A stretch of DNA of 64,000 nt from Burkholderiales bacterium (GTDB lineage: Bacteria; Pseudomonadota; Gammaproteobacteria; Burkholderiales; SG8-41), in the NCBI GenBank assembly GCA_030684405.1, contig JAUXYA010000034.1, positions 74,459-138,458 on the forward strand. Reading direction: 5' to 3'. The translations under genes and the position numbers were made by a program. This document shows positions 5,701 to 8,256 of the stretch, piece after piece. The notes beneath the pieces are model-generated. The model searched no databases. It saw only the letters and a program-made list of their open reading frames with translations, and was not told the origin of the DNA. Every line of letters begins with the position of its first letter. Positions within the stretch are counted from its first letter, which is position 1.

Positions 5701-8256
5701 ATGTCACGTCGCATCCTCGTCACCTCCGCGCTGCCGTATGCGAACGGCGCCATCCACCTCGGCCACCTGGTCGAGTACATCCAGACCGATATCTGGGTGC
5801 GTTTCCAGCGCATGCAGGGCCACGAAGTGCACTATGTCTGCGCCGACGACACCCACGGCACGCCGGTGATGCTGCGCGCGGATGCCGAGGGCATCACGCC
5901 GGAAAAGCTGATCGAACGCGTGTGGAAAGAACACAAGCGCGACTTCGACAGTTTCGGCGTTGACTTCGACAATTACTACAGCACCAATTCGCCCGAGAAC
6001 CGGGCGCTGTGCGAAGAAATCTACGGCGCGCTGAAGGCGCGAGATCTGATTGCCGTGCGCTCGGTCGAGCAGTTCTACGATCCGGTCAAGGCGATGTTCC
6101 TGCCGGATCGCTACATCAAGGGCGAATGCCCTAAATGTGGCGCCAAGGACCAGTACGGTGATTCCTGCGAAGCCTGCGGCGCCACCTACGCGCCGGTCGA
6201 CCTGAAAAATCCCTATTCCACGGTCTCCGGCGCTGCACCGGTGCGCAAGGCTTCAGAGCATTACTTCTTCAGACTCTCCGATACGCGCTGCGAGACTTTC
6301 CTGCGTGACTTCACCCAGAACGCCGACCGCCTGCAGCCCGAGGCCGCCAACAAGATGAAGGAATGGCTGGGCAAACCCGGTGAAGCGAAGCTCTCGGACT
6401 GGGACATTTCGCGCGACGCGCCCTACTTCGGCTTCGCGATCCCCGGCACTGACGGCAAGAAGTTCTTCTACGTCTGGCTCGACGCGCCGGTCGGTTATTT
6501 CGGCAGTTTCACCCACCACGTTCGCAGCAAGAATCTGGACGATAAGCTGCTGCAGGATTTTCTGCGCCCCGGCAGCGACACCGAGCTGGTGCACTTCATC
6601 GGCAAGGACATCCTCTACTTCCACGCCCTGTTCTGGGCGGGGTTGCTGCAGCACGCCGGCTTCCGCACGCCAACGAAGATATTCGCCCATGGCTTCCTGA
6701 CCGTGAACGGCGAGAAGATGTCCAAGTCGCGCGGCACCTTCATCACCGCCGAGAGCTATATCCAGCAGGGGCTGAACCCGGAATGGCTGCGTTATTACTA
6801 CGCCGCCAAGCTGAACTCGACGATGGAGGACATCGACCTCAGCCTCGATGACTTCGTCGCACGGGTGAACAGTGATCTGGTTGGAAAATTTATCAATATT
6901 CTCAGCCGTGCCAGTGGCTTCATCACAAAGCACTTCGACGGCCGCTTGCTTGAGCCCCAGCCAGACGTAAACGGACAAGAAGTACAGTGGGCCGCAACCT
7001 TCAGAGCAATTGCCGCCGCCGAAGAGGCGAAAGTGGCTTTCGAAGAACGCGAATATGGCAAAGCTGTCCGGGCCATCATGCGCCACGCCGATCGGATAAA
7101 CGAGCTTTTTGACGCCGCAAAGCCGTGGGAGCTGGCAAAGAAAATTCCCGGCGACGACAAAGCCAAGGCTGAACTCCACAGCAAATGCAGTGATTGCATC
7201 GCTGCGTTCAAAATCCTGACTTATGCCCTGTCACCCATTCTGCCGATAACGACCGAACGCATCGCCAAACTTCTTAATCTGCCTCTTCCTTTAAAGTGGT
7301 CTGACATCGATACTCCTTGCACCAAAATTCAGCCCTACCAGCACCTGATGGCCCGCGTCGACCCCAAACAAATCGAAGCTTTGGTCGCCGCCAACAAAGA
7401 AAGCTTCAAACCCGCCTCCCCTCTCCCCCCGGGAGAGGGGTCGGGGGTGAGGGAACAGCGCAATCCGTCCCGACAAGCCGTCACAAAAAAAACGCCACTG
7501 CCCGATGATCTGCTGAACTTCGCCCGCCAGCTCCGCCACGAACAAACCGATGCAGAACAGCTGATCTGGGCTTTGCTGCGCAATCGCCGGCTGGCAGACC
7601 GCAAATTCCGCAGGCAGCACCCGGTCTCGCTCGGCAATGCCAACTACATCCTTGATTTCTACTGCGACGAACTGAAACTGGCCGTCGAACTGGACGGCTC
7701 GCAACATCAGGAAGAAAAAGTAAAAGACGACATCCGGACTGAGGCATTGCAGAAAGCCGGCATTTCCACAATCCGTTTTTGGAATAATGAAATACTTCAG
7801 CAAACAGACGCAGTACTGGAGAAACTCTGGAACACGATCATGGAAAAATCTATTGCAGCATCGTTGCCATCCCCCCTCACCCCCGGCCCCTCTCCCGGGG
7901 GGAGAGGGGAGACATCTGGCGCTGATGCGCTGATTTCGATCGACGATTTCACCAAGATTGACCTCCGCGTCGCCAGAATCGCCAATGCCGAACACGTCGA
8001 AGGCGCCGACAAGCTTTTGCGTTTGACGCTCGACGTCGGCAGCCTTGGCACGAAACAGGTCTTCGCCGGCATCAAGGCGGCTTACGATCCGGCAGCGCTG
8101 ACCGGCCGGCTGACAGTGATGGTCGCCAACCTCGCGCCGCGCAAGATGAAATTCGGCATGTCCGAGGGCATGGTGCTCGCCGCCAGCGGCGAAGCGCCGG
8201 GCCTCTACCTGCTGTCGCCCGATTCCGGCGCACAGCCCGGCATGCGCATCAAGTAG
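5701..8256 (+). CDS. metG: Methionine-tRNA ligase with an in-frame DUF559 endonuclease insertion in the linker before the C-terminal tRNA-binding OB domain
   Basis: HLGH (HIGH motif), Zn knuckle [25 protein letters not shown]-terminal [14 protein letters not shown]...KFGMSEGM. Confidence 0.97.
7416..7453 (+). repeat. Left BoxC-like palindromic repeat
   Basis: CTCCCCTCTCCCCCCGGGAGAGGGGTCGGGGGTGAGGG; internal stem CCCCTCTCCC/GGGAGAGGGG with a 3-nt loop; translated as [12 protein letters not shown]. Confidence 0.9.
7874..7911 (-). repeat. Right BoxC-like palindromic repeat (inverted copy)
   Basis: CCCTCACCCCCGGCCCCTCTCCCGGGGGGAGAGGGGAG on the + strand; translated as [13 protein letters not shown]. 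Confidence 0.9.

Follow-up and report, generated by a model that had tools for sequence, protein, structure and literature searches.

The window analysed here, a stretch of 64,000 nucleotides from a Burkholderiales bacterium (GenBank assembly GCA_030684405.1, contig JAUXYA010000034.1, positions 74,459 to 138,458), carries metG, the gene of methionyl-tRNA synthetase (MetRS), as a single open frame on the plus strand, and this frame includes an insert that holds a DUF559 nuclease domain between two inverted repeats. The cassette formed by the nuclease and its repeats is located in the flexible linker that leads from the anticodon-binding domain to the C-terminal tRNA-binding domain. This metG is the only MetG-like gene found in the genome, as a protein search returned one full match; the three further matches are the second DUF559 copy of this genome and two weak hits that cover no more than residues 5-148 (26-39% identity, E about 1e-7 to 1e-8), one of which, on contig C28, is LeuS. 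The gene and its insert are composed as follows:

5701..8256, plus strand: metG open reading frame, 851 residues including the insert; sole full MetG match in the genome
5713..6912, plus strand: class I MetRS catalytic domain, residues 5-404 (Pfam PF09334 tRNA-synt_1g, E 6.5e-141, profile positions 1-390 of 391)
7416..7453, plus strand: left BoxC/PIT/TM unit with pyrimidine arm (7418-7427), loop (7428-7430), purine arm (7431-7440) and mirror 'third strand' GGGGGTGAGGG (7443-7453)
7513..7836, plus strand: DUF559 domain, predicted Vsr-like PD-(D/E)XK nuclease, residues 605-712 (Pfam PF04480, E 1.1e-33)
7874..7911, plus strand: right BoxC/PIT/TM unit, the inverted copy, with CCCTCACCCCC (7874-7884), pyrimidine arm (7887-7896), loop (7897-7899) and purine arm (7900-7909)
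7912..7932, plus strand: seven-codon tail TSGADAL from the right repeat to the C-terminal domain, kept in the four cassettes of the genus with an assembled right junction
7963..8244, plus strand: C-terminal tRNA-binding domain, residues 755-848 (Pfam PF01588 tRNA_bind, E 7.3e-22, profile positions 1-95 of 96)

An earlier note on this stretch, drawn from its letters alone, had described a complete DUF559 domain lying in frame in metG between inverted repeats of 38 nt, and the Pfam match and a repeat search bear this out. The two arms are complementary at 37 of 38 positions (97%); the stem of the left arm is formed by CCCCTCTCCC and GGGAGAGGGG around a 3-nt loop, and the right arm contains a perfect 10-bp stem. 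Both arms are free of stop codons in the metG frame and are translated into Pro/Gly-rich peptides, and across species the left repeat is read in two frames (SPLPPGEG and PSPxGRG) while its DNA is conserved, in agreement with the proposal that the repeat DNA doubles as peptide linkers. The extra length of the protein is real as well: from the N-terminal motif to the C-terminal domain 733 residues are counted here as compared to 573-622 in insert-free MetG proteins of relatives. No Hint, intein or splicing family is found among the ten Pfam matches at E up to 0.01 in the 851-residue protein, just as the note had seen no intein ends, and in the absence of a splicing domain the insert should remain in the mature synthetase. 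Aminoacylation by the E. coli enzyme survives removal of the C-terminal domain, which would explain why an insertion is tolerated at this point. The TSGADAL tail resembles the GAGATAT..-plus-hairpin tail found beside solo repeats elsewhere in the genome, and it may belong to the element and not to metG.

The junctions are supported by contig pieces. In a run that belongs to another study (X2), pieces tile 6900-7413, 7384-7444, 7415-7903 and 7883-7965 with 0-1 differences and thereby span both junctions, and record 10 of X3, a run of the study that probably also supplied the source sample, spans 6998-7447; the pieces are short because the repeats break assemblies. Joints in X2 that skip the cassette (e.g. 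7391 to 7936) were considered as empty alleles and not accepted, as their sides are 30 nt long, their likeness is 90% and the interior is unread. As a separate observation, the C-terminal domain (7963-8244 and its orthologues in the genus) shows about half as much synonymous divergence (dS) as the catalytic core, whichever class of pairs is considered (ratio 0.43-0.49, 136 pairs), for which codon constraint or recombination are possible reasons.

What kind of protein does the insert encode? Its domain reaches 115.8 bits with the DUF559 profile at a cut-off of 20.6 and covers positions 4-107 of 109, and PDB entry 3hrl is matched by sequence with an E value of 1.4e-21. An AlphaFold2 model of the 173-residue insert, based on 59 aligned sequences, has a mean predicted local distance difference test score (pLDDT) of 87.3, with values above 95 over insert residues 31-150 and about 60 for the repeat-encoded Pro/Gly ends of 12-15 residues. 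In a Foldseek comparison of this model the top rank is taken by 3hrl, an endonuclease-like protein of Neisseria (template modelling score 0.85), followed by the catalytic domain of I-Bth0305I (3r3p, 0.69), the nuclease domains of PvuRts1I and AbaSI, and Vsr (1vsr, 0.55), which makes the homing endonuclease I-Bth0305I the nearest characterised structure. The family motifs are kept, namely the D in ..LDF.., E.DG..H and RFW, and among the 59 sequences including the window copy E92, G95, H98 and R121 do not vary and D81 and D94 hardly do; these conserved D, E and H residues are presumably catalytic. Sequence and model together thus predict a Vsr-like PD-(D/E)XK endonuclease. Moreover, a comparison of the six copies in metG genes of the genus gives the embedded domain a ratio of nonsynonymous to synonymous divergence (dN/dS) of 0.06-0.11 for 14 of the 15 pairs, as compared to 0.13-0.24 for the MetG core, and a ratio below that of the core argues that the nuclease is maintained as a protein and not as a mere open spacer.

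The repeats that flank the nuclease in metG are intrastrand-triplex motifs of the BoxC/PIT/TM type, which confirms the resemblance to BoxC that the earlier note had pointed out. Each arm of about 37 nt consists of a pyrimidine stem, a loop, a purine stem, a short spacer and a G-rich segment (GGGTGAGGG). As described in the consulted parts of one report (Holder et al. 2015, PMC4666352), the element was named BoxC first, then PIT and then TM, for triplex motif (earlier work of Bachellier in the 1990s and of Hoyne in 2000 is cited there); E. coli K-12 contains 23 copies, all of them intergenic, with two types of second loop, TTA and CCG, and with some pairs in inverted configuration; the motif forms an intrastrand triplex in vitro and is tied to local genome instability; and, in those same parts, remnants of transposases or integrases are said never to have been found near its copies. 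The word 'endonuclease' is absent from the main text of that report. Both types of second loop are present in the genus of the window. The hairpin core CCCTCTCCC-N3-GGGAGAGGG, for which a genome scan had been proposed, occurs 17 times in the 3.74-Mb genome as compared to zero times for the reversed control, and if loops of 3-12 nt are allowed, 34 hairpin copies are found versus none of the reversed controls. A comparison with Rfam gave seven matches at E up to 1, none of which came near its gathering score. That the repeats described here may form a triplex finds its support in mirror covariation across DUF559 loci: the third segment fits the purine arm better as a mirror than as a direct copy at 33 loci, better as a direct copy at two and equally well at 27. 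Since the third segment mirrors the purine arm, as in the geometry of a purine-motif triplex, a constraint on DNA structure would seem to act on the repeats.

Some further observations concern the repeats of this genome (G000) and its relatives. The genome contains a miniature inverted-repeat transposable element (MITE) of about 200 bp with 12-bp terminal inverted repeats (ATTGAGGATTAC...GTAATCCTCAAT) and an internal triplex-repeat doublet, present in at least ten copies that are 96-99% identical and break the assembly at several contig ends (copies at C6:245291-245476, C6:188526-188711, C6:261045-261231, C30:98922-99112 and C20:227105-227290, and at the contig ends of C18, C19 and C35). This MITE was rejected as evidence on DUF559, since it is a separate element with 12-bp termini of its own. 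In some left units a recurrent insertion of about 20 nt (ACACTTGAAGCG.AGCAG) separates the purine arm from the third strand, at C36:163600-163650 and C33:28355 of the same genome, in the MITE copies and, in translated form, inside the metG cassette of another genome of the genus (G012, L050). In free-standing DUF559 copies (e.g. L042, L040, L001) an ATG or TTG start codon lies about 8-10 nt past the third strand GGGTGAGGGG, which could double there as a Shine-Dalgarno sequence.

The association of the nuclease with the repeat is not a peculiarity of metG. The second DUF559 copy of the genome, which is intergenic on contig C36 and 45% identical to the metG copy, has the same repeat flanks, and in the genus each of the 25 DUF559 loci inspected has the repeat, or a G/C variant, next to it on one or both sides. 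Beside the members of a second DUF559 subfamily of the genus a corresponding variant is found (CCCTCCCCC/GGGGGAGGG), and the variants of the repeat co-vary with the DUF559 subfamily they flank; at the level of whole genomes this correspondence is weak, with at least three copies of the variant CCYTCCCCC..GGGGGARGG in all five genomes that have the second subfamily but also in six of 35 others. For a comparison across phyla 80 DUF559 loci were collected, one genome per species, from Proteobacteria (alpha to zeta), Chloroflexota, Planctomycetota, Nitrospirota, Verrucomicrobiota, Spirochaetes and Firmicutes, 79 of them with usable flanks. A flanking inverted-repeat score of at least 14 was reached by 68 of the 79 loci versus 0 of 74 and 2 of 76 controls displaced by 500 nt, which is the flank enrichment that the earlier note had suggested looking for. 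The repeats at these loci are of the triplex-motif type and lie next to the open reading frame with the hairpin pointing outward and the third strand inward; the association of nuclease and repeat is therefore general across phyla.

Co-occurrence in whole genomes points in the same direction. Among 40 genomes of the genus the median number of hairpins is 17 in those with DUF559 (n=19) and one in those without (n=21), and the sole carrier with zero hairpins (G020) has the other subfamily. Outside the genus, 150 genomes of the class were sampled, one per family, and counted as DUF559-positive upon a strong match; at least three canonical hairpins were found in 19 of 30 DUF559 genomes versus 14 of 120 others (odds ratio 13, Fisher p 2.4e-8); without the unpublished genomes G092 and G170 the counts are 18 of 28 versus 14 of 120. 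The 3' end of ycjD, the DUF559 gene of E. coli K-12, lies in a decayed repeat whose loop contains the stop codon, and an intact type-A triplex motif is located about 170 nt 3' of ycjD, before fabI, adjoining a duplicated 3' fragment of ycjD (L061 2541-3330). The statement of the earlier note that ycjD lies near BoxC at fabI is thereby confirmed for this strain. An unrelated hairpin is found upstream of ycjD in the same genome.

The cassette lies in frame within many other genes. Searching with the 173-residue insert yielded 706 longer proteins at E up to 1e-10; about 100 of the best 120 are MetG proteins with the same three-domain order, and the rest of these 120 include two MetH, LeuS, a ValS-like protein with two inserts, HsdR, HsdM and type IIG restriction-modification enzymes. 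The hosts other than MetG all show the linkers SPLPxGEGxGVR and LTPxPSPxGRGE. At the level of the genomic loci, open frames of at least 250 residues hold 32 of the 79, and a second Pfam family was detected in 16 of 20 long frames scanned (three MetG, ValS, LeuS, ThiC, a YgiQ-type radical SAM protein, an HrpA-like helicase, a Mur ligase, three N6-methylases and four type IIG/ISP/MmeI enzymes). Taken together the cassette resides in at least ten unrelated families of host genes. In HsdM it occupies one shared position in four unrelated genomes of distant taxa (L105, L112, L192, L181), after ..TFHxWQ/R and before ..IPGFCKSA..DYVLTPGRYVG, and genome G205 has cassettes also in an HsdS gene and in another DNA methyltransferase, so that restriction-modification genes look like a preferred host. 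Solo repeats, too, are found in frame in the genome of the window, at the following places:

L193 (C36:467931-471497): solo repeat in Mfd, near residue 384
L194 (C30:63200-65653): repeat doublet in NuoG, near residue 536-560
L195 (C33:350949-354074): solo repeat in an FAD-linked oxidase/Fe-S protein, near residue 749
L197/L198 (end of C28, start of C23): solo repeat in LeuS, between the start of the catalytic domain and the editing domain; the assembly breaks there

Is the insert a fixed part of MetG? The earlier note had supposed that it persists as a permanently fused domain, and this part of its proposal did not survive the comparison with relatives. The cassette is present in metG of six of the 40 genus genomes (G000, G008, G002, G012, G044, G047), and the four of these that were placed on a tree of the MetG core are scattered, with four changes, which is no better than for shuffled labels. 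Alignment of metG did reveal empty alleles, the insert-free genes of the genus containing a linker (APAPHSQQRHAQHQ...) that is common to other families of the order; this linker is therefore ancestral, and loss of a cassette could not have regenerated it. Two MetG proteins from the database, P0010 with the cassette (870 residues) and P0121 without it (705 residues), are 96% identical over their first 530 residues, and the empty allele P0121 retains a solo-repeat-like PPSQPSSVKGEG at the position of the right repeat; a solo variant repeat is also found in the metG linker of G011. The six cassettes of the genus show three layouts of the left junction, the right junction is identical in the four in which it is assembled, and the stems are intact in five of the six. 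Furthermore, the domain of G012 is 84-86% identical to those of G044, G008 and G047 and only 72% identical to that of G002, although among the six genomes it is G002 that has the core nearest to the G012 core, and over 74 fusions the identity of the cores and the identity of the inserts are correlated with r 0.34.

A second locus, an intergenic site upstream of an aldehyde dehydrogenase gene, displays presence and absence of the cassette as well. Of 28 loci examined, nine were scored as occupied by script and that of G008 by inspection, two had too little flank, and 15 with usable flank show a conserved AT-rich spacer of about 30 nt that lacks the repeat (in G014 with a shortened flank). In G012 the site contains a single hairpin that joins the left flank of the left unit to the right flank of the right unit, a footprint which is the product expected of recombination between two palindromic hairpins. 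Recent multi-copy spread is seen in genome G081, where three copies of the cassette are 95-97% identical over 580-644 bp and the identity stops at inverted ends of about 135-165 bp. The copies lie in different palindromic contexts, one being nested in the loop of another repeat. The DNA directly outside each of these copies (L174, L175, L177) is itself an inverted repeat that differs from copy to copy; either the cassette enters the centre of palindromes or the loops of hairpins, or insertion duplicates the flank in inverted form. The presence of the cassette is thus polymorphic.

These data support the view that the insert is no ordinary domain fusion and that the DUF559 nuclease and the inverted BoxC-type repeats on its two sides make up a discrete cassette. 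Going beyond this, the insert is probably a copy of a widespread and apparently undescribed nuclease-plus-repeat cassette that is mobile, or was so recently, and that is tolerated in the linker of MetG; it may be autonomous, as the earlier note had supposed. A broader proposal is held more tentatively, as its likelihood falls somewhat short of even: DUF559 proteins may be the missing partner enzymes of BoxC/PIT/TM, and the two together may form a class of mobile cassettes in many phyla that resides in essential and restriction-modification genes by in-frame translation.

How could such a cassette move and persist? It could be imagined, with roughly even chances, that the structured repeat is the target of the DUF559 nuclease, which would nick the DNA there or close by. 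In the course of repair, recombination or gene conversion would copy the cassette into other repeat-bearing or homologous sites, in a homing-like manner and without duplication of the target, and recombination between the hairpins would delete the cassette and leave a solo repeat. Selection would retain only insertions that preserve the frame and lie in tolerant linkers. The repeat contains a stop codon (TGA) in one of its six frames, and since in addition the nuclease reading frame usually lacks a stop codon of its own, a cassette or solo repeat should survive in a coding sequence if its length keeps the frame. With the cassette in the flexible linker of MetG, the essential enzyme should stay functional and the nuclease would be made as a fused domain.

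Several observations weigh against a mobile cassette. To begin with, the whole argument is built on comparison. The openness of the frame is what base composition predicts: the left arm has a stop in 15 of 55 cassettes, about one in three, and a stop between the domain and the right arm is found in seven of 55, a count for which composition alone accounts. The idea that an open frame across the repeats is an adaptation was consequently rejected, the counts fitting a single TGA-bearing frame. Target-site duplications, of which the earlier note had seen none, are lacking in 37 of the 55 cassettes, and the remaining ones, with 1 nt in ten and 2 nt in eight, are close to chance. No co-conversion was detected in the C-terminal domain, for which the ratio of dS to that of the core within the genus is 0.43 in insert-insert, 0.49 in insert-empty and 0.49 in empty-empty pairs; there is no usable signal because this domain evolves more slowly in every class. 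A hint of transfer of the 3' end, given by fusions whose cores are 52-58% and whose C-terminal domains are 77-87% identical to those of the window, was dropped, since the close but insert-free relatives of P0010 (P0121-P0123) have a C-terminal domain very similar to its own and the similarity is thus not tied to the cassette. The embedded domains have a dS of about 1, like the core, and the metG copies are accordingly old and could be largely vertical in descent with repeated loss. In a tree of 207 DUF559 domains the 109 rows embedded in MetG need five label changes (shuffled mean 69), of which the well-supported branches force only one, and such a nearly single clade fits one ancient insertion with vertical descent and loss as well as it fits site-specific spread. 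Moreover, the co-occurrence of nuclease and repeat has exceptions in both directions: in the genus G019, G001 and G009 have 31, 27 and 13 hairpins without DUF559 (completeness 91%, 82% and 97%), in the class-wide sample G107, G110, G153 and G165 are repeat-rich without it (36, 57, 29 and 72 hairpins), and seven of the 30 DUF559 genomes contain no canonical hairpin. Finally, DUF559 is rare on plasmids (35 of 72,556 records, several of the matching 'plasmid' records being chromosome-sized) and on phages (2 of 50,697).

Some of these points would equally suit an ancient fusion that serves the host and is inherited vertically, be it of a Vsr-type repair nuclease with MetRS or of a moonlighting domain, in which case the patchy distribution would be due to repeated loss alone and the repeats would be what is left of a single old insertion. 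Strong purifying selection on a domain with the synonymous divergence of the core, the nearly single clade and the missing co-conversion are all compatible with it, and so is the DNA-damage response that the Caulobacter DUF559 protein VsrA causes in vivo, according to the consulted parts of PMC12907096. Such a fusion is nevertheless quite unlikely, because the repeats are undecayed, at 37 of 38 positions in the window and with intact stems in all but one of the genus copies, the empty linker is ancestral and not regenerable by loss, insert and core identities are weakly correlated, with the G012 domain farther from that of G002 than the cores would suggest, alleles with 96% identical cores differ by the cassette, and the same cassette is found in its ten or more unrelated host families. 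An assembly artefact, a repeat-bounded fragment misjoined into metG, has almost nothing to recommend it: the assembly is of metagenome type with 37 contigs, and repeats do break contigs elsewhere (end of C28, start of C23), but the same architecture is present in five other genomes of the genus and in about 100 of the best 120 database proteins from many sources, the pieces from the other study tile both junctions, and the frame is open with intact domains on both sides.

A strict homing endonuclease of the metG site, which would cut insert-free metG near the segment coding for ISIDDF and be copied by repair, the repeats serving as stop-free linkers only, deserves more attention and is still doubtful. 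The nearest characterised fold is that of a homing endonuclease, every metG cassette occupies one and the same position of this conserved essential gene and the occupied genes are scattered, the embedded domains form one clade, the right junction is identical in all four assembled copies of the genus, and the HsdM cassettes share one site in several taxa. Against this stand the three left-junction layouts and two reading frames among six genus copies and the lack of a co-conversion signal; in addition, free-standing intergenic copies have the same repeat flanks, which indicates that the repeats belong to the element and are not metG-specific linkers, and the copies of G081 lie in different palindromic contexts. 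Alternatively, the BoxC/TM repeats themselves might be the active entity, being recombinogenic or moved by replication or repair of the host or by another enzyme, with DUF559 as a passenger caught between two of them or as a factor of repair or containment for the unstable repeat. We consider this unlikely too. Repeat-rich genomes without DUF559 exist, solo repeats are far more numerous than cassettes, the motif is linked to local genome instability in the consulted parts of PMC4666352, part of the repeats of this genome ride in the unrelated MITE, and deletion of a cassette between hairpins requires no dedicated enzyme. A passenger, however, would not be expected to have flanks of uniform orientation with inward third strands at 68 of 79 loci or to keep a dN/dS of about 0.1, the repeat variants co-vary with the DUF559 subfamily, and the two Y1-transposase-like genes of the genome map to contigs C5 and C8, neither of which yielded a copy of the repeat.

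BoxC/PIT/TM elements have been catalogued for about 30 years in E. coli, cyanobacteria and hundreds of other genomes with no enzyme, origin or means of spread assigned to them, and DUF559 is a very common nuclease family of 'unknown function'; the link would provide repeats and nuclease family alike with a testable role. A literature search, judged mostly from titles and the beginnings of abstracts and with subscription journals and supplements outside its reach, found no paper that links DUF559 to BoxC/PIT/TM. If the cassette is mobile, translation as one more domain would be enough to keep a nuclease gene inside an essential gene, and homing-type nuclease genes would have a third mode of residence there next to introns and inteins, one that needs no splicing. 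This bears on how proteins acquire insertions and linkers, on annotation, since it would account for many 'hypothetical' Pro/Gly-rich segments and oversized synthetases, and on genome instability at triplex-forming DNA. The recurrent insertion in HsdM, HsdS and type IIG genes furthermore suggests an interplay with restriction-modification systems.

How does the proposed cassette compare to known systems? With BoxC/PIT/TM it shares the layout of pyrimidine arm, loop, purine arm, second loop and G-rich mirror strand, the length of about 37 nt, the multi-copy nature and both loop types. In E. coli, however, these elements are always intergenic according to the consulted parts of PMC4666352, whereas here the repeats flank a nuclease gene and sit in coding sequences. 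With the Rickettsia palindromic elements, as described in the consulted parts of PMC10969869, the cassette has in common that palindromes are found in frame in unrelated housekeeping genes and are translated; those elements come without an enzyme and from one genus, whereas the cassette carries a nuclease, has solo repeats as a second form and occurs in many phyla. Transposons, insertion sequences and MITEs are resembled by the near-identical, inverted-ended copies in G081 and not by the lack of target-site duplications.

REP-associated tyrosine transposases (RAYTs), which are HUH/Y1 transposases of the IS200/IS605 type, and their repetitive extragenic palindromic (REP) sequences were the analogy offered by the earlier note. 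This analogy stands with respect to anatomy, as in both cases a low-copy nuclease gene lies between inverted copies of dispersed G/C-rich palindromes, gene and palindromes co-occur, and the variants of repeat and enzyme are matched; it fails with respect to the enzyme, which here is predicted to be a Vsr-like PD-(D/E)XK nuclease and not Y1/HUH, the two Y1_Tnp matches of the genome being weak (32 bits) and on repeat-free contigs. REPs, moreover, have no mirror third strand and are extragenic by definition, whereas the cassette is often translated inside host proteins. Vsr, the endonuclease of very-short-patch repair, belongs to the same superfamily, as the model comparison suggests, but the conserved partner is here the repeat and not a methylase; no gene for a cytosine methyltransferase was seen next to the metG copy, though none was searched for systematically. 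Homing endonuclease genes such as that of I-Bth0305I appear, from the same comparison, to share the Vsr-like fold, and with them and with inteins the cassette has in common one place in conserved essential genes, a patchy distribution in close relatives and a preserved host frame. Unlike those it has neither intron nor intein, its ends are structured repeats that also occur alone, and no co-conversion was detected. The cassette has an anatomy like that of REP/RAYT and a lifestyle like that of homing genes and inteins and lacks the defining features of each. It has a substantial chance of representing a new class of mobile element.

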